This document shows, one piece after another, positions 7,569 through 35,243 of a stretch of 64,000 nucleotides of DNA (positions are counted from its first letter, which is position 1; each line of letters starts with the position of its first letter). This DNA is from an uncultured Pseudomonadales bacterium (GTDB taxonomy: Bacteria > Patescibacteriota > Microgenomatia > UBA1400 > PJMF01). Location: the NCBI GenBank assembly GCA_964437755.1, contig CAYTIA010000005.1:802-64801 (forward strand). Reading direction: 5' to 3'. The notes under the pieces were generated by a model, which worked only from the letters and a program-made list of their open reading frames with translations, was not told the DNA's origin and did not search any database. The translations under genes were made by a program, and so were the position numbers.

Positions 7569-10163
7569 ATGCAAACAGATAATTTTTTACATCAACCTCC
7601 ACAAAATCTAAATCCCAATAGTAGTAGTCTTCAAACAACTCAATCAGTTTTTGGTCAACATTCTCAACCAGAACAGCAGGAAACAACAAAATTTAGAAGA
7701 AATCAAGGTGATTTTTCAAGAAATAAATCAAAACTTTTTTTAGGTGGATTAGTTCTTTCATTGTTTATGGTTGCTGGAGGTGTGGCCTACCATTTATCTC
7801 AACAAGCAGGAATTGGTGAGATCAGACAACAAGCTAGTGTTGGCTCAGAGGGTTGGATTGCCTTTTCTGCCAAAACAGCTACTGGCACAACTCAAATCTT
7901 CTCCATGAAAGAAGATAATGGAGATTTTAAGGTACTATCATCAGAAATAAATGGCGAATCTTCGAAACATGTTTCTTATTCTCCTGACGGAAGTAAGGCT
8001 GTTTATACTTCCAATAAATCTGGCTCATGGAATATTTACATGATGGATTCCGACGGAGGAAATGAAGAACAGTTAACTACTGACGGAGGAGCTTTCTATC
8101 CAAGTTTTTCTCCTGACGGAAGTAAAGTTGTGTATGTGTTTGAAACCTCTATTGGACCAGCAATAAGTTCGCAAATCAGAGTTAAAAATATTGGAGGATC
8201 AATAACTCCCTTAACAGATGCAGTTCAGGCTAAAATTCATAACCCTCTTTTGATTCAGGGCGGAAGCAAGTTAATTTTTTCTTCAACTCAGATGGGTGGA
8301 ATACCACAAATTTTTTCTTACAATTTAGGAGTTGAAAATTCACCAATTAATCAGCTGACGACATCTGGAGGAAAGCATCCTTCAATGCTTAACAATAATA
8401 CAATTATGTTTGTTGCTCCGATTGACGGAGTTGATCAAATATTTTCCATTGGAATTGACGGCGGGAATTTAACTCAATTGACTTTTGATACAACTTCCCA
8501 TTATGGATATCCTGTGATATCTCCTGATGGTACTCATATAGCTTATGTTGCTTGGAATATTGGGGAGATTCTTCCCACAGTTGCTCCAACAACACCTCCT
8601 ACGGTAGCTCCCACAGCTATTCCCACAGTTGCTCCAACTCCTACAGATGTACCTTGGTGTCTTGCAAGAGGAGAAGAATGTTACAATGGATATTCTGAGG
8701 GTACCTGTTGCTCTGGCTTGTTCTGTAGCTATGATACTGACAATTGTGAGTGTATAGATTCAAACAACTGTCCAGCTCTACCAACAACAACTCCTACGGT
8801 TGCTCCTACAGCTATTCCCACAACAGCGCCTACTCTTACTCCAGTTCCTCACTTGACAATAGCGCCGACAATCCCTGAAGGATCTTGTACAGGCCAGTGT
8901 TTAGGTTCTCCCGGATTTGAGTGTCCAGGAGGAAGTTTTGTCTGTAGCCCAGATGGTTTGGGTTCTTGTAGTTGGACTTGTGGCCAAGGTGATGTTATGG
9001 GAGTAAATACAGCTGACTATCAAATTGTAATTGAAAACTTGAATACTGGTGAGGCTTGGGAGTTTTCACAACCTCATTTGTGGCAAGATGAGTACGTCAA
9101 TAGTGATGAAACAATGTTGTCTCCCAATTCGTGGGTAATTAATTCTCAAACGCCAACAATTTCTCCAGGATTATCTCCAACTGGTCAGCCTGAAGAGCTT
9201 TCATGTGGTGAGTTTGGCTGCATTAGCAACAATGATTGTGAGGGGGATTTAACTTGTGCTGTTTTTGGAGATAATGAAAGAGGTTATTGTAGTGAACAAG
9301 TAAATTTAGATGCTTGTTTAGCTGAGCCAAGTTTAGAGACTTGTTGCGATGAGCCAGCAATATTGACTCCTGATCCAACAAGCGCTCTTACTCCAACTGT
9401 TGTTCCAGAAACATCTCCAACACCGGGCATCTCTGAGCCAGAGGGTAGTGTCGATCTAACTTTATCAATTTCTCTAGACGGGGTACCTTATTGCGAAAAT
9501 ATTGGCACAACATGTTTGGGTAATTCTGACTGTCAAGAAAACAATTTCTGCATTTTGGGAAACTGTTCAGCTTGTTATCACCCCATTTCTTCACACCCAG
9601 CTTTTAGTGGAGGTCAGAGAATAATAAATACCAACGTAACAATACTTCATGCAAAAGCAGGAATTTTTACTAAGAACAATGTGGAATTCGTTTATTCAGA
9701 ACAATCTAGAGCGTTCTCAAATTCAAGTCCAGTAACTTTTGATAATCTGCCAGAAGGCCCCTTCATGATTTATGTTAAGGGTCCAATGCATATGGCAACA
9801 CAATACTGTTATTCTGGGGCTGGAATTAATAACGTTTGTAATTATGAAAGTTTGTTGGCTGCTAATAATATATATCCAACCGTAACACCTCATTTTATTT
9901 ATTTAATACATGGGGCAAACAGTTTGGATTTATCGGCTCGATCTGTTCGAGTAGGAGACTTACCAATTTCTGGTGAGGCTCAGAATGTTCAGGATGGAAA
10001 AGTAAATGTTTTTGATTATTCATTCATGCTTTCTTGTTTGGGAAATAATAGTAAAACCGAGTTTTGTCTTTCTAGAGCTGACGTGGATTTTTCAGGTCAA
10101 GTGAATAATATTGACCTAGGGCTTCTTCGAAAAGCATTTATTGAAACAGTTGATCAAATATAG
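7569..10163 (+). CDS. Membrane-anchored surface protein: TolB-like beta-propeller repeats, Pro/Thr linkers, Cys-rich modules, C-terminal dockerin-like domain
   Basis: One TM segment around aa 55-75; repeated YSPDGSK/FSPDGSK (PD40-type) blades; PTVAPT linkers; CxxC-dense modules; C-terminus DGKVNVFDYSFML...DVDFSGQVNNIDLGLLRKAF resembles a duplicated dockerin calcium-binding segment. Confidence 0.6.
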   Translation: MQTDNFLHQPPQNLNPNSSSLQTTQSVFGQHSQPEQQETTKFRRNQGDFSRNKSKLFLGGLVLSLFMVAGGVAYHLSQQAGIGEIRQQASVGSEGWIAFSAKTATGTTQIFSMKEDNGDFKVLSSEINGESSKHVSYSPDGSKAVYTSNKSGSWNIYMMDSDGGNEEQLTTDGGAFYPSFSPDGSKVVYVFETSIGPAISSQIRVKNIGGSITPLTDAVQAKIHNPLLIQGGSKLIFSSTQMGGIPQIFSYNLGVENSPINQLTTSGGKHPSMLNNNTIMFVAPIDGVDQIFSIGIDGGNLTQLTFDTTSHYGYPVISPDGTHIAYVAWNIGEILPTVAPTTPPTVAPTAIPTVAPTPTDVPWCLARGEECYNGYSEGTCCSGLFCSYDTDNCECIDSNNCPALPTTTPTVAPTAIPTTAPTLTPVPHLTIAPTIPEGSCTGQCLGSPGFECPGGSFVCSPDGLGSCSWTCGQGDVMGVNTADYQIVIENLNTGEAWEFSQPHLWQDEYVNSDETMLSPNSWVINSQTPTISPGLSPTGQPEELSCGEFGCISNNDCEGDLTCAVFGDNERGYCSEQVNLDACLAEPSLETCCDEPAILTPDPTSALTPTVVPETSPTPGISEPEGSVDLTLSISLDGVPYCENIGTTCLGNSDCQENNFCILGNCSACYHPISSHPAFSGGQRIINTNVTILHAKAGIFTKNNVEFVYSEQSRAFSNSSPVTFDNLPEGPFMIYVKGPMHMATQYCYSGAGINNVCNYESLLAANNIYPTVTPHFIYLIHGANSLDLSARSVRVGDLPISGEAQNVQDGKVNVFDYSFMLSCLGNNSKTEFCLSRADVDFSGQVNNIDLGLLRKAFIETVDQI
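8586..8627 (+). repeat. 42-bp Pro/Thr-linker coding repeat, copy 1 (copy 2 at 8781..8822, about 88% identical)
   Basis: ccaacaacacctcctacggtagctcccacagctattcccaca versus ccaacaacaactcctacggttgctcctacagctattcccaca. Confidence 0.8.
8781..8822 (+). repeat. 42-bp Pro/Thr-linker coding repeat, copy 2
   Basis: See copy 1; direct repeat within the same CDS. Confidence 0.8.
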
Positions 10164-12472: not shown

Positions 12473-13276
12473 ATGAACTTGATATCTCCAATAACTTTTA
12501 TTTCAAAAAAATCCAGAATCAAAACAATGGAAGCTGGATTAATTGCAGTATTTGTTTTTTTAGTTTTTATTTTTCAGTTAAGTGGTATATCTTCGACAGC
12601 CTTAAGTATTGGGAATGTGATTTGTATCCCTTTTATTCGATTAAATGTTGCCGTAGTTTCAAAAATTCATAATTTTCATGAAATTCTGCATCAGCAACAA
12701 CAACTGATTAGAAGAGTTCAAGATCTAGAAATCAGATTAAGTCAATCTCAGGCTCGTCTTGGCGAGATTGACCAACTTTCTAAGGAAAATGAAGAACTTA
12801 GGCAGTTACTAAATAGTTCTGACAGGTCTTTAAGAAAGGTGGTAATAACTAAACCAATTTTGTCATTTGCTCAACCAACAGTTGGTATTTCAGCAGAGGA
12901 AGAAATCCAAATAGGATTAGCGGTTTTAGTGAAAGATACCTTAATTGGACAGATTAAGGAAATTAAACAAGGTGCTGCCTCGATTGAGTTGTTGTGGCAA
13001 GGAGGGTCAAGTCCCGTGTTGGCAACAACTGAATCAGGTACTCAGGGAGTTGTTATTGGAGATGGGAAAAGAGTGATTTTTACAGAGGTGCCAATTACCG
13101 AAAAGCTAGAAATCGGGCAGAGAATCACCACTACAGGACAAAGAGGGATAGAGAGGGGTTTGTATATTGGGGAGATTCGCGCTCTTCAAACAGGTGCTTC
13201 TTCTGCTGTACAAACAGCTATTATTGAGCAACACGTATCCTTTTATGAAGCCCAACTTGTTGAAATAAGATTGTAG
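12473..13276 (+). CDS. mreC: Rod shape-determining protein MreC
   Basis: N-terminal TM segment, coiled-coil (RLSQSQARLGEIDQLSKENEELRQLL), C-terminal beta-domain; position between mreB and mreD. Confidence 0.65.
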   Translation: MNLISPITFISKKSRIKTMEAGLIAVFVFLVFIFQLSGISSTALSIGNVICIPFIRLNVAVVSKIHNFHEILHQQQQLIRRVQDLEIRLSQSQARLGEIDQLSKENEELRQLLNSSDRSLRKVVITKPILSFAQPTVGISAEEEIQIGLAVLVKDTLIGQIKEIKQGAASIELLWQGGSSPVLATTESGTQGVVIGDGKRVIFTEVPITEKLEIGQRITTTGQRGIERGLYIGEIRALQTGASSAVQTAIIEQHVSFYEAQLVEIRL

Positions 13277-13341
13277 CAATAATAGATCTATCATTAACTT
13301 TAAACTTGGATTTTTTATTTGGTGGGGTTAGCATATAACTT

Positions 13342-13779
13342 ATGTCCATAATCATAAAGAATACTTTCATTTTTTTAATCAAGTTGTTTGTATTATTGTT
13401 TGTATTGAGTTTTGAAAGGGTGGTTGGATTACCCTTTCTTTTTTCCTTGTTTGGTCTAATTATGCTTGATCAAACTAAGAAATCTTTCTTTATAAGACCT
13501 GTTTTGCTGCTAATTCTAAGTTTTTTAATGGCTGCAATGTTTCAAGCAGCCTGGTTAACAACAATGGTTGCATGGTGTTTGTCATTAATGTTTATGATTT
13601 TGGGTACTAAGTTGGTGAGAGTTAAAAAAAGGAGGTTCTTAATAATAGTGATTATTCAAAACTTATTGTGGCTGTGGTGGTTGAATATTCCAACAAATTG
13701 GTCTTTACTAATCCAATTAATTGTAAGTTACGTTCTCGTGATAATCTGGTTTAGAATTTTCTCAAAACCTAGAAAATAA
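13342..13779 (+). CDS. mreD: Rod shape-determining protein MreD (small polytopic membrane protein)
   Basis: 145 aa, 4-5 hydrophobic helices, located between mreC and PBP2. Confidence 0.45.
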   Translation: MSIIIKNTFIFLIKLFVLLFVLSFERVVGLPFLFSLFGLIMLDQTKKSFFIRPVLLLILSFLMAAMFQAAWLTTMVAWCLSLMFMILGTKLVRVKKRRFLIIVIIQNLLWLWWLNIPTNWSLLIQLIVSYVLVIIWFRIFSKPRK

Positions 13780-15659
13780 TGAAAAAAAATTATCGAATTA
13801 TCTCGTTTATAAAACTTGGTAAGCGTGATAAATTTTTTGTCGTTGTTTTTATTATGGTGGTGGCTTTTTCAGTATTGGTTCTGAGATTGATTCATGTTCA
13901 GTTGATAATGGGTAGTTACTATTATCGATTGGCTGATGCCAATCGACATTTTAAACAGCCAATTCCTGCCAGAAGAGGGGTTTTTTTAGATAGATATCAT
14001 CAACCACTAGTTAACAACACTAAACAATATTACGAACAAGAAGAGGATCTACTTTTTCCAAAAAAAAATCAAATAGACCATCAATCTGCTTTAGAGTTAA
14101 TGGTCAAAAATGATTGGCAAGTTTCGTTTGAGTATCGAAGACTGTATAAATATCCTTGGCAGCTCGCCCACACATTGGGTTACGTAGGGCCAATTACCTC
14201 TCAGGAACTGGCAGAGAATAATCAACTTAAAGTAAACGATCAAGTTGGAAAAATGGGCTTAGAAAAAGTTTATGATCAAGTATTGAGAGGCAGAGATGGT
14301 TATCAAATTTTTGAGATTAATACTTTAGGAGAAAAACAACAACTAGTCTCAAAAACAGACCCAGTTGCAGGCAATGATATTTTGACTAGTCTGGATCCAT
14401 TCTTATCAAAAATTGCGTATGATGCTTTGGGAGAGATGATGGGAGCTGTGATAGTTTTAGACGCAGAAACTGGGCAGGTTTTAGTTTTGGTTAACAAGCC
14501 ATCTTTTAATCCTAATGATTTTGGCAATAACTTTTTAGATCAAGTACATGAAGAACAAAGAAAGGCCAGTCTTCAAAGTTATTTTCAAGATGAAAGAAGA
14601 GTGTTTTTTAATCGGGCCATCAGCGGAACCTATCCGCCAGGATCTGTTTTTAAGTTAGTCACTTCTGTGGCAGGTTTAGAGTCAGGATCTTTCGACGAAC
14701 ACAAAACAGTTTTGGATGAAGGAATATTAAAGGTTGGAGATTATGAGTACAGAAATTGGCTTTATACTCAGCGAGGAGCAACTGATGGCGAGATTGCCCT
14801 AATTCGAGCTATTGCTAGAAGTAATGACATCTTTTTTTATAAAGCAGCTGAATGGACGGGGCCAACAACGATTGCTAATCAGGCATTGGCCTTTGGATTT
14901 GGTAAAATAACTGGAATTGAGCTATCTGGAGAAGTTAGAGGACTTGTTCCAGATCCTACTTGGAAGGAAGAGGTGATGGGAGAAAGATGGTTTTTAGGAA
15001 ATACTTACCATTTTGGAATTGGCCAAGGAGACATGGTTGCCACCCCCCTTCAGATTGCTCAGTTTATTCAATCTTTAGGAAACTATGGGAAGCTTTGTCA
15101 TCCTAGTTTAGTCATCAATGATGGAAAAAATGAGTGGAGTGCAGAAAAATGTGAAAACCTTGGTCTTCAGGATAATTCTTTAGAATTAACCTTAAGTGGA
15201 ATGATAGCTGCTTGTCAGCCTGGTGGCACTGGTTCACTCTTGTTTAAATATAACGAAGCTTTTGCGCCAATTAATGATGTAGAAAATGCTTACGATATGA
15301 TTGAGGCTGGGGCGGTTGGATGTAAAACAGGAACCAGCGAGTTCGGCGGACAAAACGAAAAAGGAAGAAGGAGAACTCATGGGTGGTTTGTTGCAATTAC
15401 AACAATAAATAGTGAAGATGTGGAGAATAATATTGAGGAAAGACTTGAATTATCGATAAATAGAGAAGAGGAAGAAAGTCAGTTAGAAATACTATCAACT
15501 AAAGAGTTACAGCAATGGTTAGATGGTATACAAAAACAGGGATTTCCAAAAAAAATAGCTCTTGTTGCATTAGTAGAAAGTGATGACGCTATTCCTTATA
15601 AGGAGGGTTCTAGAGAAGCAGCTCCGGTAATAGGTGCAATTTTAAGTTATTTGAAGTGA
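13779..15659 (+). CDS. mrdA: Penicillin-binding protein 2 (class B transpeptidase)
   Basis: N-terminal TM; SxxK (PGSVFKLV), SxN (ARSNDIFF), KTG (GCKTGTSE) motifs; start codon overlaps mreD stop. Confidence 0.85.
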   Translation: MKKNYRIISFIKLGKRDKFFVVVFIMVVAFSVLVLRLIHVQLIMGSYYYRLADANRHFKQPIPARRGVFLDRYHQPLVNNTKQYYEQEEDLLFPKKNQIDHQSALELMVKNDWQVSFEYRRLYKYPWQLAHTLGYVGPITSQELAENNQLKVNDQVGKMGLEKVYDQVLRGRDGYQIFEINTLGEKQQLVSKTDPVAGNDILTSLDPFLSKIAYDALGEMMGAVIVLDAETGQVLVLVNKPSFNPNDFGNNFLDQVHEEQRKASLQSYFQDERRVFFNRAISGTYPPGSVFKLVTSVAGLESGSFDEHKTVLDEGILKVGDYEYRNWLYTQRGATDGEIALIRAIARSNDIFFYKAAEWTGPTTIANQALAFGFGKITGIELSGEVRGLVPDPTWKEEVMGERWFLGNTYHFGIGQGDMVATPLQIAQFIQSLGNYGKLCHPSLVINDGKNEWSAEKCENLGLQDNSLELTLSGMIAACQPGGTGSLLFKYNEAFAPINDVENAYDMIEAGAVGCKTGTSEFGGQNEKGRRRTHGWFVAITTINSEDVENNIEERLELSINREEEESQLEILSTKELQQWLDGIQKQGFPKKIALVALVESDDAIPYKEGSREAAPVIGAILSYLK

Positions 15660-23980: not shown

Positions 23981-24238
23981 ATGCCAAATTTTGATCAAAC
24001 AGGACCTACAGGAGCTGGTCCAAGAACTGGTAGAGGAAGAGGGGGTTGCATTTCTGGCTATGGAGTAGGATATGGATATGGATATGGATGTGGGTGTGGC
24101 TGTGGAAGAGGAATGGGAATGGGTCGATTTGTTTCGCCAAAGAATCAACTAATGGCTCTTAAGGAACAGGAAGAGATGCTAACTGAAGAGTTAGAAGTTT
24201 TGAGAGAAGAAATCTCTTCTCTTGAAAAATCAGCTTAG
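23981..24238 (+). CDS. Small Gly/Cys-rich protein with C-terminal coiled-coil (DUF5320-like)
   Basis: MPNFDQTGPTGAGPRTGRGRGGC...GYGYGYGCGCGCGRGMGMGR low-complexity core plus acidic helix LKEQEEMLTEELEVLREEISSLEK. Confidence 0.55.
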   Translation: MPNFDQTGPTGAGPRTGRGRGGCISGYGVGYGYGYGCGCGCGRGMGMGRFVSPKNQLMALKEQEEMLTEELEVLREEISSLEKSA

Positions 24239-24266
24239 AAGATAGGTTTTAATAAGACGAATTTTG

Positions 24267-24300
24267 CCAGCAACACAAAAAGTGTTGCTGGTTTTCTGTT
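24267..24300 (+). terminator. Rho-independent terminator after the DUF5320-like gene
   Basis: Perfect 10-bp stem ccagcaacac/gtgttgctgg with 5-nt loop, followed by TTTTCTGTT. Confidence 0.55.
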
Positions 24301-24325
24301 AGACTAGACCGTATAAAATATACAT

Positions 24326-24610
24326 ATGCCTCGTCCAAGATCACAAAAATCAATACGTTTTAAGCCAAGCGCTACCTTTTTTAAACCGCGTGGAGTGCCA
24401 ATGCGTGATCTTGAGGTGGTGAAGTTATCTCCTGAAGAAGTTGAGGTATTACGTTTAAAAAATATGGAAGATCTTTGCCAGCATGGGTGTGCTTGCCAAA
24501 TGAACACTTCTCAAAGCACTGTGCAGAGGTTGCTCTCTTCAGCGTACTCAAAAATTACTCAAGCCATTATTGAGGGAAAAGCATTAGAGATTGAGGAGAA
24601 GACTATATAA
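24326..24610 (+). CDS. UPF0251/DUF134-like predicted DNA-binding protein
   Basis: N-terminal MPRPRSQKSIRFKP...FFKPRGVPMRDLEVVKLSPEEVEVLRL, then an HTH-like STVQRLLSSAYSKI. Confidence 0.55.
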   Translation: MPRPRSQKSIRFKPSATFFKPRGVPMRDLEVVKLSPEEVEVLRLKNMEDLCQHGCACQMNTSQSTVQRLLSSAYSKITQAIIEGKALEIEEKTI

Positions 24611-24697
24611 ATAATATTTATTAGATATTTATATATCTCAATGTATCTATTGCAGGATAAGGCTGATATCTCAATATAATTTTTTTGCGTGAAAGAT

Positions 24698-24726
24698 TTG
24701 CTTCAAAGTAATAAAAAAGATATAAT
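24698..24726 (+). promoter_or_regulatory. Sigma70-like promoter (-35 TTGCTT, 17 bp, -10 TATAAT) for the giant PP2C gene
   Basis: ttgctt-N17-tataat, 27 nt upstream of the ATG at 24754. Confidence 0.45.
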
Positions 24727-24753: not shown

Positions 24754-27700
24754 TTGAAAAAAAATATGTCCACAGAAAATTCTCCATCACCAGCATCACA
24801 AAGAGAAAAACTTGCTCATGAAACGCTGGGGCCAGACTTTAAGCCAGCTCCAATATCGGTAACTACTTGGACTGGTGGTCGTGAAGAAAACCAAGATGCA
24901 TTTTTTTCATTTGCAGTTATGCCAGAGTCTTACTATGATCGAGATCTAAATGAAAAAGAAAACTTGAAGGCTTTATCAGCTGCTGGGTATGAGTTGGTGA
25001 TGGTTGCTGACGGTATGGGAGGACATCAGGGTGGTGCAGAGGCTTCAAAAGTATTGACTCAGACAGTAATGAGGGTGTTTGCCGGTGAATTCGCTAGATA
25101 TTATGCTCAAACAACAAATAAGTCTTTAGCGACTGCCTCTCCAGAAGAAATCCAACAGTTTGTTAGAGATAAAATGCCGGTTTATAATTTGAAATCTTTG
25201 CTTAGGTATGCTATTGTTGAGGGCAACAAAAGCATTCAGGGTGTTGCTGGTTATGCAGAAGCTAGCAAAAAACCAGGATCGACTATTGTGGCTTCTTTTT
25301 TTGATCGCAACACAAACAAACATGTAATTGCTAACGTAGGGGATTCAAGAGCTCAGAAGATCACTCAAGGGGGTAAGCTAGAGCAGGTTACTGAAGATCA
25401 TTCAGTGGTTCAAAGATTATTAAAGGCGAAAGTAATTACAGAGGAAGAGGCACAAAGGCATCCAGCACGAAATGAAATATACCGCTCTTTAAATGGTCAA
25501 AAAATTGAAAAACCAGTTGAATATATTGACACTTTCGAAGTTCAGCTTAAACCAGGAGAAGTATTGATCTTGAACTCCGATGGATTAGAGGTCTTATCAA
25601 GAGATGAGATTGAAAAAGTAGTTAAAGAAGCCAAGAAGGATGGTACAACCATAGATCGGGCTTTAGTTGCTGCGGTTGACAGAAAACAACTTTTAGCGCT
25701 TGCCGAAAAAATTGAGTTTTCAGGTTTGCTTACAAGTGAAGAAATCAAAAAAATCTTTGAAGAGAATGCTCATCAAATGAAAAATAGTGAATTAGCGAAG
25801 CTTCTTTTTGAGAAAGTTGAGGAGGCTAGAAGAGAGGCAATTTATCAAGAATTAAGGGCTATTAATGTCCCTGGTTGGGTAAATAAACCTACTTTAGCCG
25901 AAAAGCTAAGAAAGGGAGAGGTTATTGCTGATGCAGTCATAGGTGAAGCACAGCAGTTAGCTAATGAAGGAACCATTGAGAAAAGCGATGTTAACCATTT
26001 ACTAAATGGTAAGAAATTTAGAAAAATCGAAGGCTACAATCATGACAATATTACTGTTATAATTATTGGCGAGGTAAAAAATACTTTTGGAACTGAATTA
26101 ATAAACAGGGCAAAATCTCTTTGGGATTCAGTTATCAATCTCTTCATAGGCAAAGATAAAAAAACTTCACCAGCAACTCCTACTGCTCAATCACCTGAGC
26201 AAGCTGATGCTAAACCAGAAAAAACTGGTTCATTGGCAAAGGTTTGGAAATGGTTAATAAGCTGGAAAGAGAGACGTGCCGCAAAACGATCAGCTGCAGA
26301 AATCAGAACTGCTTCTCAATCTCCAGAAGTGAGTACAGGTTTAACTGTTGAACAATCAATTCAAGCTTTATTGGCAATACTTAAAACACAAGATCGAAAT
26401 TTATTATTAAAGCTAGGGTTAATTAAAAATACACAAGAAGAGGATGATGATTCTGAGGCAGGGGGCTTGGCTGATTTTGTGAATGAGTTAAGTAGGGATC
26501 AAGCTGAGACCATTCAAAACAGAGAAAAAATTACTGATTTAGAAGCAAGAATTGAAGAGAATAGGCAAGCAGAGCGAGATATAGCAACTGAAGTTCATAA
26601 CTACTTAATATCTCTTTATGGTCATAATTATTTAAATCATCTTAGTCAAGATAATCGTGTTTATATAAACAGGTGTAATCAAGATATTCTTGGTATTAGA
26701 GCTATTCGCGCTGATCTCGAAAGAGAACTTGAACAAGCTAGGCAAGAGATGGGTGAAACAGATTCTTCCGTAAAAGAACTTACTATTGATGGTTTAGCAT
26801 TTAATCCAAAACGCAGAAGACAAGTAAAATTAGCTCTAGAAAGAGTGATTTCTAGCAATGAAGATGAAACTAAAGTAGCCAATATTAGAGACGCTTTGCA
26901 AAAGCATTTGCATGCTCTTGAGGCTAGTGCCTGGAAACCATTTGAAAAACTACAGCAGAAACCACTTTTCATGAAGATAAAAGGTATTTTCGAGAAGTTA
27001 AGTGGCTATACAAAAACTCAATGGGAAAATAGACCAAGGACGGTTGCAGAATGGAAAGACAGAGCGAGAGATAAGTCTATCGAGCGTTGGGAAAAACGAA
27101 AAGATAGCTATAACAAAAAGGAGCAAGTTTGGAGAACTAGTCTTAATTTGGAGTCAGTTACCCCAGAAGAATTAACAGCCTGGGAATTAGCACTAAGAAA
27201 AGGTCAGACTCTTGAAGCTAGGCAAGTGGTAGCTTTAGTTCTTGAACAGAGAGTTGGCTCAATTCCAGAGTTGAATAAACATAAAAAAGTTCTTAGAGAA
27301 GCGGGAATTGATTTGCAGCATGATTTAATGGATTGGCTCAGATTCCAGTGGGAGAAAAAGTTAACTGATGAGAGAATTGAGGCTGATGAAAATGTCAGAA
27401 AACTAAAAGAAGCAAAAGCTAACTCCCCTGAAGCAAGAAAAGAACTAAGAAAAGCAATTGTAGCACAGACAGAAGCTTATCTTAAATGGCTTAATTTGAA
27501 GGTTTATGATCATGTTAAAAAATCTGCTATTTTGGAAGCACAACTTGATCGATTTGGCAGACCAAATGCTACGGGCATAGCGAAAGAAGACATTGAAGGA
27601 ACTGGATGGCGGGGTTTGGTTAATAACCTTAAGAGATATATGTCTATGCCAAAGATGACAGCAGGACAAAGAGACGTGGCTTACTACGTCACCTATTTTC

Positions 27701-28833
27701 CATCTATGATTGGATTGCTAACTGCTCCAGGTTTAACTGCAGGAGCAAAAAACGTCATCATGGGAGTAACCTCTGGAGTGAGTGTTGGCGGTGAAGTAAT
27801 TAAACAAAGAATTGAGGCTCAATATGGAGGAGACAGTGAGGCATACTGGGAGAGTTTGCGTGCCAAAGAGGGTTTAAGTAGCAAAGTAATTTTTGCTCTT
27901 CAGAGGATAGCTGTTTCCAAAGCTGTCCAAAGTGTTAGAGATGGTATATCTGGAGGTGCAATGGCAGCTCAGGTCAGCAGTCTTCTTGGATTTGACACTT
28001 TTGCCTATCAGCTAAGAGAAAGTATTGATCGTGCTGCGCAGGGATTGAGTGGAGAACTTCCTGCTGATTTACAGGAGATTGTTGATCAACATCCAGAAAT
28101 TGTTTCTGAAATGGAAGATCTTCAGGCAGAACTCGATAGAGTCACTGAAGAAGCAGCACAACAAGCTGATTCACTTCGAGATGAATTAAGCGACGCTCAA
28201 CAAGCTGCAAAAGATTTGGAAGTGGAACTTGGTGACGCTCAACAAGCTGCAAAAGATTTGGAAGCTGAGCTTGAAAGGAAGGCTCAAGAGTTGCTCAAAG
28301 AGCAAGAAAAAGTAGCAGAGGCTGCCAAAGAAGCTGCTGAGCGTTCAGCTGCTGCTCAAGTAACTGAAGAAGCTGCTGTCGAAGCGGCCAAAGAAGTTAC
28401 TTCTAAGGCAGTTTCTCATTTGCCAGAAGCTCTTGCTGACTATGGTGATCAAGTAGTGCAGATGAAAGGAGGTGATTTTCTAGGAGATGTCTCTGCTTTA
28501 TGGACGGCTAACAGAAACCTTTCGGCTGAACTAGATCCAGCAAATAATGCTAACTCAATGGCGGGGTTTTTAACAAGAGCCTTTAGAGCACTAAACCCAG
28601 GAGTTGATCCAGCCAAACTTGATCCTGAAAAAACTTATAACTTCTTAACTGAAGAAGCAGTTAAAGCCTTGTTGCCAGAAATTAGAGCTGCTGAAAAGGC
28701 TGTTCTTGAAAGAGGTATCCAGAGTCTTGATTTACCTCAGCAATTAATGGCTGCGGGAATCGATGGATTTACTCATCCTACCTTTAATGATGAGCAATTA
28801 GCTTTAGTGTTAGAAACTGTTCTAAATAAATAA
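24754..28833 (+). CDS. Giant (1359 aa) protein: N-terminal PP2C/PPM Ser/Thr phosphatase domain fused to about 900 aa of coiled-coil/low-complexity sequence
   Basis: PPM motifs GGREENQDAF, VADGMGGHQGGAEAS, VIANVGDSRA, ILNSDGL. The remainder is helical and charged, with one hydrophobic stretch (YYVTYFPSMIGLLTAPGLTAGAKNVIMGVTSGVSVGG). Confidence 0.75.
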   Translation: MKKNMSTENSPSPASQREKLAHETLGPDFKPAPISVTTWTGGREENQDAFFSFAVMPESYYDRDLNEKENLKALSAAGYELVMVADGMGGHQGGAEASKVLTQTVMRVFAGEFARYYAQTTNKSLATASPEEIQQFVRDKMPVYNLKSLLRYAIVEGNKSIQGVAGYAEASKKPGSTIVASFFDRNTNKHVIANVGDSRAQKITQGGKLEQVTEDHSVVQRLLKAKVITEEEAQRHPARNEIYRSLNGQKIEKPVEYIDTFEVQLKPGEVLILNSDGLEVLSRDEIEKVVKEAKKDGTTIDRALVAAVDRKQLLALAEKIEFSGLLTSEEIKKIFEENAHQMKNSELAKLLFEKVEEARREAIYQELRAINVPGWVNKPTLAEKLRKGEVIADAVIGEAQQLANEGTIEKSDVNHLLNGKKFRKIEGYNHDNITVIIIGEVKNTFGTELINRAKSLWDSVINLFIGKDKKTSPATPTAQSPEQADAKPEKTGSLAKVWKWLISWKERRAAKRSAAEIRTASQSPEVSTGLTVEQSIQALLAILKTQDRNLLLKLGLIKNTQEEDDDSEAGGLADFVNELSRDQAETIQNREKITDLEARIEENRQAERDIATEVHNYLISLYGHNYLNHLSQDNRVYINRCNQDILGIRAIRADLERELEQARQEMGETDSSVKELTIDGLAFNPKRRRQVKLALERVISSNEDETKVANIRDALQKHLHALEASAWKPFEKLQQKPLFMKIKGIFEKLSGYTKTQWENRPRTVAEWKDRARDKSIERWEKRKDSYNKKEQVWRTSLNLESVTPEELTAWELALRKGQTLEARQVVALVLEQRVGSIPELNKHKKVLREAGIDLQHDLMDWLRFQWEKKLTDERIEADENVRKLKEAKANSPEARKELRKAIVAQTEAYLKWLNLKVYDHVKKSAILEAQLDRFGRPNATGIAKEDIEGTGWRGLVNNLKRYMSMPKMTAGQRDVAYYVTYFPSMIGLLTAPGLTAGAKNVIMGVTSGVSVGGEVIKQRIEAQYGGDSEAYWESLRAKEGLSSKVIFALQRIAVSKAVQSVRDGISGGAMAAQVSSLLGFDTFAYQLRESIDRAAQGLSGELPADLQEIVDQHPEIVSEMEDLQAELDRVTEEAAQQADSLRDELSDAQQAAKDLEVELGDAQQAAKDLEAELERKAQELLKEQEKVAEAAKEAAERSAAAQVTEEAAVEAAKEVTSKAVSHLPEALADYGDQVVQMKGGDFLGDVSALWTANRNLSAELDPANNANSMAGFLTRAFRALNPGVDPAKLDPEKTYNFLTEEAVKALLPEIRAAEKAVLERGIQSLDLPQQLMAAGIDGFTHPTFNDEQLALVLETVLNK
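28192..28275 (+). repeat. Two tandem 42-bp repeats inside the giant CDS (DAQQAAKDLE[V/A]EL[G/E])
   Basis: gacgctcaacaagctgcaaaagatttggaag occurs at 28192 and 28234. Confidence 0.8.
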
Positions 28834-28859
28834 ATACCAATAATTAAATAAAACTGCCT

Positions 28860-29159
28860 ATGTCAAAAATCTCAGATCTAATAAAAATGATGCGGGATGA
28901 TGGAGTTGAGGAGGAAGAAATAACACTTGCTTTGGAAGAAATGACAAAATCAACTGCAATGGAACTATTTACTCATTTATTATCCTTGATCAGCAAAGAT
29001 GAGGCAGAGCTGTTGGATGCAGTTGCAGATGATCAAGAAAGAGTTGATCAGTTAGTTGACGAGATGTATCAAAAGTATGAGGGGAAAACTACAGCACAAG
29101 CTGTTGATGAGATGAACGCTCGTTTTATTGAGGCTTTTTTAGATGGTTACGGCGCTTAA
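28860..29159 (+). CDS. Small acidic hypothetical protein (99 aa) immediately after the giant gene
   Basis: ORF 26 bp after the giant CDS stop; acidic and helical. Confidence 0.35.
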   Translation: MSKISDLIKMMRDDGVEEEEITLALEEMTKSTAMELFTHLLSLISKDEAELLDAVADDQERVDQLVDEMYQKYEGKTTAQAVDEMNARFIEAFLDGYGA

Positions 29160-31304: not shown

Positions 31305-32381
31305 TTAGATGGGTAAAAGCAACCGCTGGTTTCCGTATTTAATAAGATAATCTCTGGTTCTTAAAAAATGTTGGTTTTGATATAGATATTCATAGGGATT
31401 GTGCTTGAAAAACTGGTAGAGGTCAATTAACAAATACATAAAAACCAGTTCTGTGATTAACAAGTGATTAGGTTGAGCAATATTAACTCTTTTTACATAT
31501 CCTGAATCAATAAAATACTTAACAATTTTCTGGGGATTTTTGTTCTTGCAGTCAACAAGTAAAAAAGCTAATGTTCTAGAGATATCAAGCTCTCTTGGAC
31601 CAAGAGCTGCCTTTTCAAAATCTAAAACTCCAGTTACAGCTAGACTTTTATTTGTAACGGTTTTTTGTTCAAGTTTAAGAACGAATTTATCGTCAAAATG
31701 ACAATTTGTAATATTCTTGAATAGAATATTGCCACGCACAAAGTCTAGATGAAGGAGTTGAGACTTTTTATGAGCATTAAGCCACTTTAGAAGCTTAGCG
31801 TACCTTGATAAATAGACTGGGTTTATTCTAAGTTTTAGTTTTTGTTCAATTGCTGTTTGAGTTTCAATATTTGTAAAATAGTTGTTCATTTTTGTCAATT
31901 TTTGTTGAAGATTAGAACATTCTTTGCTAGCTATTATATTTATGTTGTGACTAATTCTTTCTAAATCTTGATGCAGATAACCCAAAACTTGACCCAAAAG
32001 TTTAATGTGTTTTTTGCTATAGCTTTCCCACTCAATAGTGGATCCATCTAGGTAATTGTACAAACAACAAAAAATAGTTTTATCTCTAGTGTGGAGTTTC
32101 AAGATTTCTTGATTGTTGGTTGAGATAGTTTGACGAGTTGGCCAGCCATTATTGGCGAGTTGGTTTGAGATGAGATTGGTGAGCTTAATTTTTTCAAGAA
32201 TTTTTGGTTCTCTTTTGTAAAAAATTAGAGCTAGTTTTTCTGGTTTATCGCCATGAATCTCAATGGGTATTATTGAGTTTCGATAACCAGATTGAGTAGG
32301 TTTAATGGATATATCATTTTGATGATATTCAAACTGTGTTAAAACTCTTTTGATAACAGCTTGGCTTACTTTTGCTGGCAT
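31305..32381 (-). CDS. Protein-kinase-fold small-molecule kinase (APH/choline-kinase/HSK-II-like)
   Basis: Catalytic loop LLHLDFVRGNILF (HxDxxxxN) and VLDFEKAALG (DFx metal-binding). Confidence 0.6.
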   Translation of the reverse strand: MPAKVSQAVIKRVLTQFEYHQNDISIKPTQSGYRNSIIPIEIHGDKPEKLALIFYKREPKILEKIKLTNLISNQLANNGWPTRQTISTNNQEILKLHTRDKTIFCCLYNYLDGSTIEWESYSKKHIKLLGQVLGYLHQDLERISHNINIIASKECSNLQQKLTKMNNYFTNIETQTAIEQKLKLRINPVYLSRYAKLLKWLNAHKKSQLLHLDFVRGNILFKNITNCHFDDKFVLKLEQKTVTNKSLAVTGVLDFEKAALGPRELDISRTLAFLLVDCKNKNPQKIVKYFIDSGYVKRVNIAQPNHLLITELVFMYLLIDLYQFFKHNPYEYLYQNQHFLRTRDYLIKYGNQRLLLPI

Positions 32382-32437: not shown

Positions 32438-33205
32438 ATGAAAATTACTGCAGTTAAAACTCCAGTTGTTAGGGCAGGTGATACTCTTTTTGAACATATT
32501 GCTAATTGTATTCCTTCACTAGAAGAAAAGTCGGTGTTGGTAGTGGTCTCAAAAATTATCAGTTATTCCCAGAATCGACTAATTCCAATCAATGATGGAA
32601 CTCACGAAGAGAAGTATGAGATTGTGAAGCAGGAGGCAGATTTGTATTTACCCAATAGCATTTCTAGATATGACTTGATGTTTACCATTAAAAATGGTCA
32701 TTTAACTGTTAATGCTGGAGTAGATGAGTCAAATGCCAATGACCATTATTTACTATGGCCAACCGATCTTCAGCAAGAGGTTAATAACATCTGGAAATTT
32801 TTACGCGAGCATTATCACCTAAAGAAGGTTGGAGTGATTGTTACTGATAGCAGAACATGGCCGTTACGCTGGGGAGTAGTTGGTACCTGTCTAGCTCACT
32901 GCGGCTTTAAGCAGTTATATGATTACAGGGGGCAACCAGACGTATTTGGCAGAGAGATTCATTTTGTTCAACAAAACATTGCAGAAGCAATGGCTAGTTT
33001 TTCGGTGTTGGAGATGGGTGAGGTGGCTGAACAAACGCCATTGGGAATAATTGAGAATATCAAAAAAATTGAGTTTCAAGATCACGAACCAACACAGCAA
33101 GAATTAGCAGATCTCTTAATCAATATAGATGATGATATGTATGGGCCTTTGCTAACAAGTGTCTCTTGGCAAAAGGGTGGTGGAGGAATTAAGCTTGAGA
33201 GATAA
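32438..33205 (+). CDS. CofE-like (F420-0:gamma-glutamyl ligase family) protein
   Basis: Collinear with archaeal CofE as I remember it: VLVVVSKIISYSQNR, TVNAGVDESNA, KKVGVIVTDSRTWPLRWGVVGTCLAHCGF. Confidence 0.7.
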   Translation: MKITAVKTPVVRAGDTLFEHIANCIPSLEEKSVLVVVSKIISYSQNRLIPINDGTHEEKYEIVKQEADLYLPNSISRYDLMFTIKNGHLTVNAGVDESNANDHYLLWPTDLQQEVNNIWKFLREHYHLKKVGVIVTDSRTWPLRWGVVGTCLAHCGFKQLYDYRGQPDVFGREIHFVQQNIAEAMASFSVLEMGEVAEQTPLGIIENIKKIEFQDHEPTQQELADLLINIDDDMYGPLLTSVSWQKGGGGIKLER

Positions 33206-33207
33206 TC

Positions 33208-33957
33208 ATGATAAAAAAATCGGCTCTCTTATCCTCTCAACTTCTATTTGATGAAGCCAAGAAAATTGGTTTAGATCCTAAATGGGAAACAGATTATGGA
33301 TTATTCTCAGTGAGTCTTAATAACTCTCCGAAGAGGGAGTTCTTTTTTCATTCTAATCTTAATCTTAATGGGGAGTTATCTAGAATTCTAGTTAAGAATA
33401 AACATTTTACACGCCTGATCTTGGAAAAAAATAATTTTGTGAATATTCCGTATATTTTGCCTCGTTCTTCAGAAAAATTACAAGACTTTTTTGAGCAATA
33501 TCAGCCGATTATCTGTAAGCCTCTCTTGGGTCAGAAATCAAAAAGAGTGTATTTAATTAAAACAGTAGAACGTTTACAGAAATGTTCTCTTAAAATGAAT
33601 TTTTTTGAAAAGTATATCGATGGGGAAGAGTGTCGTTATTTAATTTTGCAGAATCAAGTGATTGCTGTGCAAAGAAAAAAACTATCTCCGACAAAAAAGT
33701 ATCCGTGGAATTTACACTACATAGGGGTTGAGAAGTTGCATTGGAATAACGATCTTGTAGAAGAATCTTTACGAATTGCTAACATATTTAATTTACGATG
33801 GGCAGCCGTCGATTTTATTATTGATGCAGCAGGAAAAGCCTGGGTACTTGAAGTAAACTCTTCTCCTGGAATAGTGAAAATCCACAATCCAGATGAGGGA
33901 GTAAGAGTAAATGCGGCGGAGTTGATCTGGAAAGCAATAACTGCTAAATACAATTAA
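33208..33957 (+). CDS. ATP-grasp ligase (RimK/CofF/MptN-like)
   Basis: ICKPLLGQKSKRVYL, EKYIDGEECRYLIL, AAVDFIIDAAGKAWVLEVNSSPG. Confidence 0.7.
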   Translation: MIKKSALLSSQLLFDEAKKIGLDPKWETDYGLFSVSLNNSPKREFFFHSNLNLNGELSRILVKNKHFTRLILEKNNFVNIPYILPRSSEKLQDFFEQYQPIICKPLLGQKSKRVYLIKTVERLQKCSLKMNFFEKYIDGEECRYLILQNQVIAVQRKKLSPTKKYPWNLHYIGVEKLHWNNDLVEESLRIANIFNLRWAAVDFIIDAAGKAWVLEVNSSPGIVKIHNPDEGVRVNAAELIWKAITAKYN

Positions 33958-35243
33958 ATTAGTTTTTCAACCGCTCCTACCAGTTCATCATCATTAAAAT
34001 ATTTAAGTAGTTCTTTTTGCCAATTGGGTACAGAGATATCAACATCAGGATTAACTCCGTTGCTCTCTATAGCAATACCATCAGAGCGAAGTGTTAAATG
34101 ATGAACTAAAAATATTGAGTACTCTTGCGTTTGATTAACCTGATTTTTGATTGGAAAAATGCGCTCTACTGTTCCCCAACCTTTGGTGGTGGTGCCGATC
34201 AGTACTCCTACATTATATTTTTGTAGTACATCAGCCATTACCTCGGCGCTAGATTGCACTTCTTCATCAATCAGTACTACGACTTTTTTATAACGAGCCA
34301 AAGTTGGTAACCAACCGACCTTGGTTTTAAAATCAGTGGTTTTTCCTTGTTGAAGCATTTGGTAAGCGTATTGATTATTGCCGATGAATGGTCCTAAAAA
34401 ATAGGGGAGACCATCAATTGCTCCTCCAATATTACCTCTTAAATCTAGAATTAAGCTAGATAATCGCTCATCCTCTCCATCAACCTTTTGAGTGATTTCT
34501 AGCAGTTCCTCAACGGTTGTAGGTGAAAACTGTTTAATTTTTAAGTAAAAAATTTGAGGAGAAATTAGCCTCCATTCCATAGTAGGATTAACACCAGATT
34601 TATCATAACGCTCACGATTTTCTTGACTTAGTAAAGTTTGCTGAGCTAATTCGAGTTGAGCTAGTTGCTGTTTTGATTCTGGGGTGTCTTCTGTCTGGAG
34701 GAGCTCCTTTTGTTTGTGGTAGGCTTGCTCAACCTCTTCATTGGTGGCTTCAGGATTGACTCCTAGTGATTGATAGTGATCAAGATCGGGATTAATGTTA
34801 CTCACTTTTTCTACAAGTTCTTTTTCAAGCTGTTGTGAGTAAAGTCGGCTACGACCAAATGGTTCTAGGTTAGCTAGAACCAGATCGGCTAATTGGGTTG
34901 TAAACTCTTCCTTGGTAGAATCGTCAGTGTAGTTCTCGAGAATAGCTATAATTTCGTCATCAAGATCTTGATAAGTTTTTATTCTGTCTCCTAGAGGTTG
35001 AGCGACAATCTGTTCTATAGCTTTGACATGCAATCGCACTAAAGCGTCTTCAGAAAAAGAATCCCAGTAGTTTTCTTGAATGATAACCCTAACTTCCTGT
35101 AAAAAGGCTAGGTATTTATTTTCGGGCTCATTGGTTTTTGTAAACCACTCAGATTTATATCTTGAAATAAACAGTCCGCCAGAAATTCCAAAAAGAAAAA
35201 TGACAATAATAAACAGCAGTGATTTGATTTTGCTATTGCGCAT
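33954..35243 (-). CDS. S41 family C-terminal processing peptidase (no PDZ) with an inserted degenerate J-domain-like segment
   Basis: S41 catalytic region LILDLRGNIGG ... VVVLIDEEVQSSAEVMADVL. The segment DHYQSLGVNPEATNEEVEQAYHKQKELLQTEDT...RERYDKSG resembles a DnaJ J-domain but lacks HPD. Confidence 0.7.
   Translation of the reverse strand: MRNSKIKSLLFIIVIFLFGISGGLFISRYKSEWFTKTNEPENKYLAFLQEVRVIIQENYWDSFSEDALVRLHVKAIEQIVAQPLGDRIKTYQDLDDEIIAILENYTDDSTKEEFTTQLADLVLANLEPFGRSRLYSQQLEKELVEKVSNINPDLDHYQSLGVNPEATNEEVEQAYHKQKELLQTEDTPESKQQLAQLELAQQTLLSQENRERYDKSGVNPTMEWRLISPQIFYLKIKQFSPTTVEELLEITQKVDGEDERLSSLILDLRGNIGGAIDGLPYFLGPFIGNNQYAYQMLQQGKTTDFKTKVGWLPTLARYKKVVVLIDEEVQSSAEVMADVLQKYNVGVLIGTTTKGWGTVERIFPIKNQVNQTQEYSIFLVHHLTLRSDGIAIESNGVNPDVDISVPNWQKELLKYFNDDELVGAVEKLI

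Follow-up and report, generated by a model that had tools for sequence, protein, structure and literature searches.

Bacterial phosphatases of the PPM family are commonly controlled via appended helical or coiled-coil regulatory modules and via partner proteins (PMC12143880). Two described groups are close to the locus presented here, namely the Stp1/PrpC/PstP-type PP2C enzymes and the RsbU/RsbP/SpoIIE-type proteins, in which the PP2C domain is combined with a sensor domain and a helical linker. The locus lies in a stretch of 64,000 nucleotides, referred to below as the window, from an uncultured bacterium that the Genome Taxonomy Database (GTDB) places in the Microgenomatia of the Patescibacteriota (assembly GCA_964437755.1, contig CAYTIA010000005.1, positions 802 to 64,801). 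Its central gene (24766..28833, + strand) encodes a fusion protein of 1355 amino acids (aa), in which a probably active PP2C phosphatase precedes a long helical region. The greater part of this region belongs, together with the small open reading frame (ORF) that follows the gene, to a two-gene unit that is also found without any phosphatase. What is new is thus the architecture, a known enzyme placed on an orphan two-gene module.

The phosphatase domain (aa ~30-437; 24853..26076, +) resembles the Stp1/PrpC/PstP enzymes in its catalytic sequence and in the set and order of its motifs. Membership of the PPM/PP2C superfamily is indicated by Pfam profiles above their curated thresholds (PF13672, PP2C_2, 33.5 bits with a cutoff of 24; PF00481, PP2C, 21.3 bits with a cutoff of 20.3) and by metal motifs (xxD, DGxGG, GDS, DG, DN) in the canonical order. 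Alignment with seven bacterial PP2Cs identifies the latter as NQD44, DGMGGH (D82-G83), GDSRA (D193), SDGL (D272) and DNITV (D427-N428), and all of them are retained in six orthologues. The closest solved relatives in the PDB are the bacterial enzymes Stp1, PphA, PstP and MspP, with E values down to 5e-16. The NCBIfam model NF033484 (Stp1_PP2C_phos) matches over profile positions 8-216 of 232 with an E value of 1.7e-37, at a score of 129.1 bits that misses the 230-bit cutoff for Stp1/IreP equivalogs. Profile matches, solved relatives and motif alignment together mark the domain as bacterial in type and probably active. A preliminary description of this DNA had claimed every PPM/PP2C metal motif, and by its sequence the domain does look catalytically competent; the label “eukaryote-like” given to it there does not hold, as in both PDB and NCBIfam the domain matches ordinary bacterial enzymes of the Stp1/PrpC type.

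Compared with both reference groups, the window protein is nevertheless built differently. Besides its low equivalog score, it departs from the Stp1/PrpC/PstP enzymes by two clade-specific insertions and by the lack of an adjacent Hanks kinase gene. The alignment with the seven bacterial PP2Cs places the first insertion, of ~28 aa, after the DGMGGH helix and the second, a helical segment of 116 aa (aa 309-424; 25690..26037, +), where the last PP2C helix leads into the final DNITV strand. The larger insertion is the fastest-evolving part of the protein, with a nonsynonymous divergence (pN) of 0.27 at codons 301-400. Moreover, the C-terminal extension of ~920 aa is unlike the tail of PstP, which consists of a transmembrane (TM) segment and an extracellular part. 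The RsbU/RsbP/SpoIIE-type proteins likewise join PP2C to a large helical part that regulates or localises it. In the window protein, however, the order is reversed, with PP2C at the N-terminus, the STAS and anti-sigma partners are missing, and the appended module is an independent protein family with a small partner of its own. In the Pfam scan the window PP2C also had no match to the SpoIIE-type profile PF07228, which many other PP2C hits carry.

The independence of the module emerged from an exhaustive search of 1.84 billion representative proteins with a HMMER profile of aa 441-1355. Outside the clade of the window genome it returned only three relevant proteins. One of them (P0080) is a PP2C-fused orthologue with 54% identity. 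The other two, P0081 (723 aa, E 1e-45, from Ca. Pacebacteria GCA_014728635.1) and P0082 (1063 aa, E 1e-9, from JGI metagenome 3300083231), contain neither PP2C nor a counterpart of aa 438-714. Their homology to the window protein starts at aa 715 and aa 731, respectively, and extends to the C-terminus (BLASTP E 3e-54 and 4e-24), and their N-termini are unrelated to one another and to that of the window protein. A further protein in the same search (P0083, 3750 aa, E 1e-4) matched only within the coiled-coil linker. Directly 3' of both P0081 and P0082, and on the same strand, lies an ORF of ~100 aa homologous to the 99-aa ORF of the window. The copy behind P0081 is related to the latter with a BLASTP E value of 5e-17, and the copy behind P0082 ends at the contig edge after 88 codons. 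A profile search with the small protein found nothing beyond these copies.

Since both parts occur together without PP2C in two other lineages, aa ~715-1355 and the small ORF form an independent two-gene unit, onto which the phosphatase was fused when the unit already existed. Sequence comparison shows that PP2C and aa 438-714 were added at the N-terminus in a single clade. So far the unit is very rare, with two Microgenomates-group genomes and one unclassified metagenome contig. No further relatives turned up in 2.9 million viral contigs, a scan of metagenome contigs re-found the locus of P0004, one of the orthologues, and nothing new, and a scan of GTDB representatives gave one unrelated PP2C only.

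A short contig bears on the boundary of the module. In the 2.4-kb contig Logan SRR8925741_189858 (L010), an orthologue with 54% identity ends at ...WKPF (aa ~726; positions 2195-2240). The region of its stop contains, in another frame, EAFLDGYGA*, which is precisely how the 99-aa ORF ends, and after it the end of the convergent dCMP deaminase gene. The junction corresponds to window position ~26940 joined to ~29130 and falls inside the span in which the homology of the PP2C-less proteins begins (aa 715-731). Either the contig is an assembly chimera, or a natural deletion of ~2.3 kb has taken out the entire module along with most of the partner gene. The neighbours of the PP2C-less copies are of other kinds. 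In the Ca. Pacebacteria locus (L007) the module pair is preceded by a Lon-like AAA+ ATPase with its lid domain but no protease domain (8639-9955) and followed by a protein of 607 aa, whose N-terminus is rich in Gln and Glu and which has several strong TM helices (12644-14467), and in the other locus (L008) an HD-domain protein is encoded beside the module. These neighbours were considered as parts of the unit and dropped, as the window contains no relatives of them.

Four full-length orthologues from independent assemblies (P0002-P0005) share 75-77% identity with the window protein overall and 79-84% over aa 441-1355. Wherever flanks were recovered, the gene order is constant across the full-length orthologues of five independent assemblies: DUF5320, DUF134, the fusion gene, the 99-aa ORF and a convergent dCMP deaminase gene. 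Set against a synonymous divergence (pS) of ~0.45-0.55, the ratio of nonsynonymous to synonymous substitution (dN/dS) is 0.15-0.18 for the fusion gene as a whole. The lowest pN falls on codons 800-1100 (0.035-0.058), compared with 0.13-0.16 for the PP2C domain and 0.12-0.14 for the adjacent dCMP deaminase, and no hypervariable segments were seen besides the linkers. Such a pattern supports a C-terminal region of ~900 aa that is functional rather than junk. The preliminary description had named a tail left unconserved in relatives as an argument against a functional scaffold; in fact the stretch of codons 800-1100 is conserved better than any other in the protein.

The 99-aa ORF (28860..29159, +) starts 26 bp 3' of the fusion gene and has an overlap of 4 bp with the convergent dCMP deaminase gene. 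A terminator scan found no terminator-like site between it and the fusion gene. Six loci, those of the window clade together with L008, have an intergenic gap of 24-26 bp, and in L007 the ORF follows within 123 bp. In four relatives the small protein is 95-98% identical, and its dN/dS of 0.01-0.03 is on par with that of thyA (0.016-0.023). Because its homologues follow the module in two distant lineages and its dN/dS equals that of thyA, the sequence comparisons support a true partner of the module. Its isoelectric point (pI) is 4.1 in the window, 5.5 in the Pacebacteria copy and 4.3 in the third lineage. The acidic ORF 26 bp downstream is present as originally described, while the chaperone function suggested for it loses its ground, given that the acidity is not conserved and no known chaperone family was matched. 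Profile searches of Pfam, NCBIfam, PHROGs, PADLOC and the PDB returned no match to the small protein. A second ORF of 99 aa, located upstream between nadD and nadE, was compared and is unrelated to the partner.

Within the helical part of the protein, several regions can be distinguished. Immediately after PP2C comes the clade-specific basic region (aa 438-714; 26077..26907, +), which is present in P0080 and P0002-P0005 and absent from P0081 and P0082. At aa ~590-660 AlphaFold2 (AF2) predicts long helices in it, with values of 70-80 for the predicted local distance difference test (pLDDT). The module of the stand-alone type follows (aa ~715-1355, ~640 aa; 26908..28830, +), as delimited by HMMER and BLASTP homology to P0081 and P0082. 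It begins with a Trp/Lys/Arg-rich helical domain (26908..27645, +), which is distinguished by a conserved Trp spacing, an HKK motif and the terminal motif DRFGRPNxTGxxxED. The columns for W, H, K and DRFG..N.TG...ED are invariant, and the AF2 pLDDT reaches 70-88 at module residues 30-160.

The next region, aa 961-1085 (27646..28020, +), is the most conserved core, with a pN of 0.035-0.042. It contains a hairpin (aa 971-1009; 27676-27792) of the form helix-Pro-Gly-helix, which is rich in Gly, Ala, Ser and Thr, semi-hydrophobic, and followed by an invariant Lys and a YGGDxE motif. This is the 35-aa hydrophobic stretch of the preliminary description. It is real, but its best 19-aa Kyte-Doolittle mean of 1.17 is under that of true TM helices (2.0-2.35 in a control membrane protein). 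The hairpin is more hydrophobic in P0081 (1.88) and less so in P0082 (0.80). As the hydropathy is under the TM range in two of the three lineages, a conserved transmembrane span is not clearly supported, and from its composition the hairpin is plausibly buried or membrane-peripheral.

The core is separated from the C-terminal domain by an acidic coiled-coil or low-complexity linker (aa 1086-1215; 28021..28410, +), whose length and composition vary between lineages; P0081 has a Pro-rich version, and that of P0082 is acidic and rich in Pro and Gly. The designation “coiled-coil/low-complexity”, previously applied to all ~900 aa, fits this linker alone, and the remainder includes the conserved ~640-aa module that is also found without PP2C. 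Inside the linker, sequence comparison reveals an in-frame tandem duplication of 42 bp, i.e., 14 aa twice (28183..28266, +), with copies at 28183-28224 and 28225-28266 that are identical at 36 of 42 bases (86%). It is the array that had been placed at 28192-28275, in a shifted register. The duplication is confined to the window genome, as each of four orthologues has a single copy, and Tandem Repeats Finder run at a score of 30 did not report it. The protein ends with a conserved domain of ~140 aa (aa 1216-1355; 28411..28830, +), which carries N..TR....NP...N...EA motifs and aligns in all three lineages. A LysM-like C-terminal domain, suggested by a sequence pattern, was dropped since no profile matched and the low-confidence prediction is all-helical.

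Known families and folds offered little guidance. The module had no credible match in Pfam, NCBIfam, PHROGs or PADLOC, and PDB sequence profile searches with module and partner gave chance matches only. Matches to TraP, DndD, KxDL and tape-measure proteins were weak and spurious, and stemmed from the coiled-coil linker. Structure prediction by AF2 reached a mean pLDDT of 46.5 for aa 441-1355 with five orthologues and of 45.9 for the module with six sequences including P0081 and P0082, where it was confident only at aa ~770-900.

The start of the fusion gene was also reconsidered. The ORF of 1359 aa from a TTG codon (24754..28833, +) that had been described is indeed present as a mechanical reading, and the true start is almost certainly the ATG at 24766, which gives 1355 aa. 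The NCBI product (P0001), 100% identical to the 1355-aa window protein, and all orthologues begin there, and the TTG is not conserved. Upstream, a promoter-like element can be read from the sequence (24698..24726, +), with a -35 box TTGCTT (24698-24703), a 17-nt spacer and a -10 box TATAAT (24721-24726). Of the “near-consensus” promoter once proposed at this site, the perfect -10 box stands and the element is kept in four of five related loci, but the -35 box has just three of six matches, which is why the element is missing from the list of a consensus scan. Just 5' of this element, in the intergenic region, the direct repeat ATATCTCAAT occurs at 24633-24642 and 24666-24675, 33 bp apart and partially conserved in related loci; it could be an operator.

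The genomic surroundings are those of a housekeeping region. The window, with a GC content of ~35%, encodes MreB/MreC/PBP2, DprA, TopA, NAD synthase, ThyA, dCMP deaminase, DHFR, dUTPase, CysRS, TGT, HisRS and a release factor among others; thymidylate kinase and RecR were assigned by synteny with related loci. A housekeeping context, free of secretion, phage and defence genes, is also found in L007. The thyA gene beside the fusion gene groups at 90% identity with a cluster that includes “Microgenomates bacterium 39_7”, which marks the DNA as a chromosome of the Patescibacteria (Candidate Phyla Radiation). Candidate kinases and phosphopeptide-binding proteins were sought with phmmer, using PP2C fusion proteins with Pkinase, FHA or FtsW domains as queries against all six-frame ORFs of the window. 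Neither a Hanks kinase nor an FHA domain was found among them, the only hit being the PP2C itself, in agreement with the earlier statement that the window has no Ser/Thr kinase. Kinase genes were likewise missing from the gene lists of four related loci (L001, L003, L004 and L006), and Pfam scans of the ORFs of the window and syntenic loci found no STAS/anti-sigma or HATPase anti-sigma genes. A cognate kinase with an anti-sigma-factor-antagonist system next to orthologues, which had been named as the mark of an ordinary partner-switching phosphatase, does not appear in the syntenic gene lists. Pfam scans of the 64 kb detected no secretion, phage or defence genes, and no secretion-system genes were seen in related loci. 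Four genes downstream of the phosphatase and on the opposite strand, a 358-aa ORF (31305-32381, -) weakly matches the Pfam APH family (E 1e-6) and carries an HxDxxxxN-like motif. All relatives have it in synteny; it is the only kinase-fold protein seen in the window, and no evidence points to an action on proteins.

The explanation that we favour, and to which we give about an even chance, is an active PP2C on an intracellular, possibly membrane-peripheral helical scaffold with a small fixed binding partner. According to this proposal, an Mn/Mg-dependent Ser/Thr phosphatase of the Stp1/PrpC type would have been fused, in one Microgenomates-group clade, to the N-terminus of a two-gene unit that consists of a ~640-aa all-helical protein and a ~100-aa helical partner encoded directly 3'. 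Inside the cell the module may serve as a scaffold or anchor, probably membrane-peripheral via the hairpin, and would position the phosphatase at a particular site or gate its activity. The small protein may be a constitutive binding subunit of the module, either a stabiliser or an adaptor, and the substrates would be proteins phosphorylated by a kinase that we infer to be encoded elsewhere in the genome. An intracellular scaffold, anchor or regulator is preferred because the constraint is at housekeeping level or stronger, because the genomic context in the window clade and in L007 is one of housekeeping genes, because no export signal or nearby machinery is apparent, and because no region except the linkers is hypervariable. 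The fusion to PP2C would, furthermore, tie the function of the module to protein dephosphorylation.

Several points weigh against this explanation. No homology or fold match gives the module or the partner a function; Foldseek searches of the PDB and BFVD with the AF2 models returned nothing at E <= 0.001, and both models are too poor (mean pLDDT ~46) for a fold to be assigned. The loci examined point to no kinase or substrate, and the proposed contact with the membrane is guessed from composition. The regulatory part of known regulated bacterial PP2Cs precedes the phosphatase, and here it is C-terminal. Finally, only three lineages carry the module, so that the conservation arguments rest on few sequences.

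Among the alternatives, a secreted or host-directed effector survives best, and it is unlikely. The C-terminal module and its hairpin would in that case form a translocation or membrane-insertion device and the small protein a secretion chaperone, while the PP2C “head” would be delivered to the host of an episymbiont-type bacterium, with other heads in other lineages. Bacteria of the Candidate Phyla Radiation (CPR) are often episymbionts, which counts for such a role, as do the varying N-termini on a conserved C-terminal module (PP2C here, unrelated sequences in P0081 and P0082), the small helical partner, acidic in the window, that is encoded alongside, and the amphipathic helices that border the hairpin. 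The layout recalls the translocator/chaperone pairs of type III secretion systems and the VirE2/VirE1 pair, in that a large helical protein with a hydrophobic segment is combined with a small acidic helical protein. The window pair, however, has no sequence or profile similarity to these and no secretion apparatus nearby. Nor is the N-terminus signal peptide-like, and purifying selection is very strong, matching or exceeding that on housekeeping genes, with no hypervariable surface. In addition, no chaperone family matches the partner, and the acidity of the latter is not kept across lineages. Of the two roles proposed at the outset, a cytoskeletal scaffold or an effector, we thus retain a scaffold as the inferred function, and the effector goes unsupported by the N-terminus, the gene content of the 64 kb and the selection data. 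A related and rather improbable proposal generalises the idea: module and partner would be a CPR-specific delivery or anchoring device with interchangeable N-terminal heads, which in this clade would export PP2C, or insert it into a membrane, for action on a host or partner cell.

A toxin-immunity pair or other conflict system, in which the linked small protein would neutralise a harmful C-terminal domain, is very improbable. The close linkage of the small conserved ORF (within 24-26 bp in L008 as in the window clade, within 123 bp in L007) and the variable linker that sets the C-terminal domain apart would suit it. PADLOC, however, yielded only hits to the PP2C domain (E 3e-5 and 5e-5) and a single one to a coiled coil (DndD, E 1e-4). 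None of them can be assigned to a defence system, and in Pfam and PHROGs neither toxin nor trafficking domains came up. It is at the N-terminus that the protein varies, the opposite of what polymorphic toxins display, and both the C-terminal domain and the small ORF are almost invariant between species. Nor is the locus an island, given that the synteny of the flanking housekeeping genes is conserved. Like the effector with its chaperone, a toxin with its immunity protein fits the layout of the genes only, and confidence in either is low.

There is still less reason to think of a partner-switching phosphatase of the RsbU/SpoIIE type that controls a sigma factor, a reading we consider barely credible. 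It would account for a large bacterial PP2C with appended helical regions, and 155 bp upstream lies a gene for a DUF134 protein, which has a weak match resembling sigma-70 region 4. But the PF07228 match is missing, neither a STAS antagonist nor an anti-sigma kinase occurs in the window or the syntenic loci, and the module also exists without PP2C. A remnant of a phage tail tape-measure-like protein, suggested by the long helices, the hydrophobic middle segment and weak non-significant matches (PHROG E 0.025; BFVD Foldseek E > 0.04), is effectively refuted, with no relatives in the viral contigs, no phage genes nearby and a conserved chromosomal synteny.

Some other genes of the region are worth recording. 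The DUF5320 gene (85 aa) and the DUF134 gene (94 aa), at 23981-24610 (+), lie directly 5' in all window-clade relatives with a recovered upstream flank and are absent beside the PP2C-less module copies. The former contains a Gly/Tyr/Cys/Met-rich hexamer-repeat tract at 24055-24106, and a strong terminator-like hairpin lies between the two genes (24266-24292). A 429-aa protein (33954-35243, -) unites a DnaJ (J) domain with an S41 peptidase domain, an unusual pairing that is kept in related loci. Also kept in relatives is the pair at 32438-33957 (+), in which a RimK-type ATP-grasp ligase comes after a CofE-like F420-0:gamma-glutamyl ligase homologue; the pair is unexpected in a CPR genome, where F420 synthesis is probably absent. 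Finally, an 864-aa protein (7569-10163, +) combines PD40 beta-propeller repeats with a C-terminal dockerin type I domain, in a region with a local GC content of 0.40 as compared with ~0.35.

Ser/Thr phosphosignalling in CPR/Patescibacteria is essentially unstudied, and full-text literature searches retrieved no paper on PP2C phosphatases in these bacteria. The locus provides a testable case, in which an active-looking phosphatase is tied to an orphan unit that is under housekeeping-level constraint and occurs in three lineages among 1.84 billion proteins. The PP2C fusion also gives a handle on an otherwise unannotatable family. To the very sparse cell biology of such reduced bacteria, the module would contribute a new component if it turned out to act as membrane anchor, cytoskeletal scaffold or delivery device.

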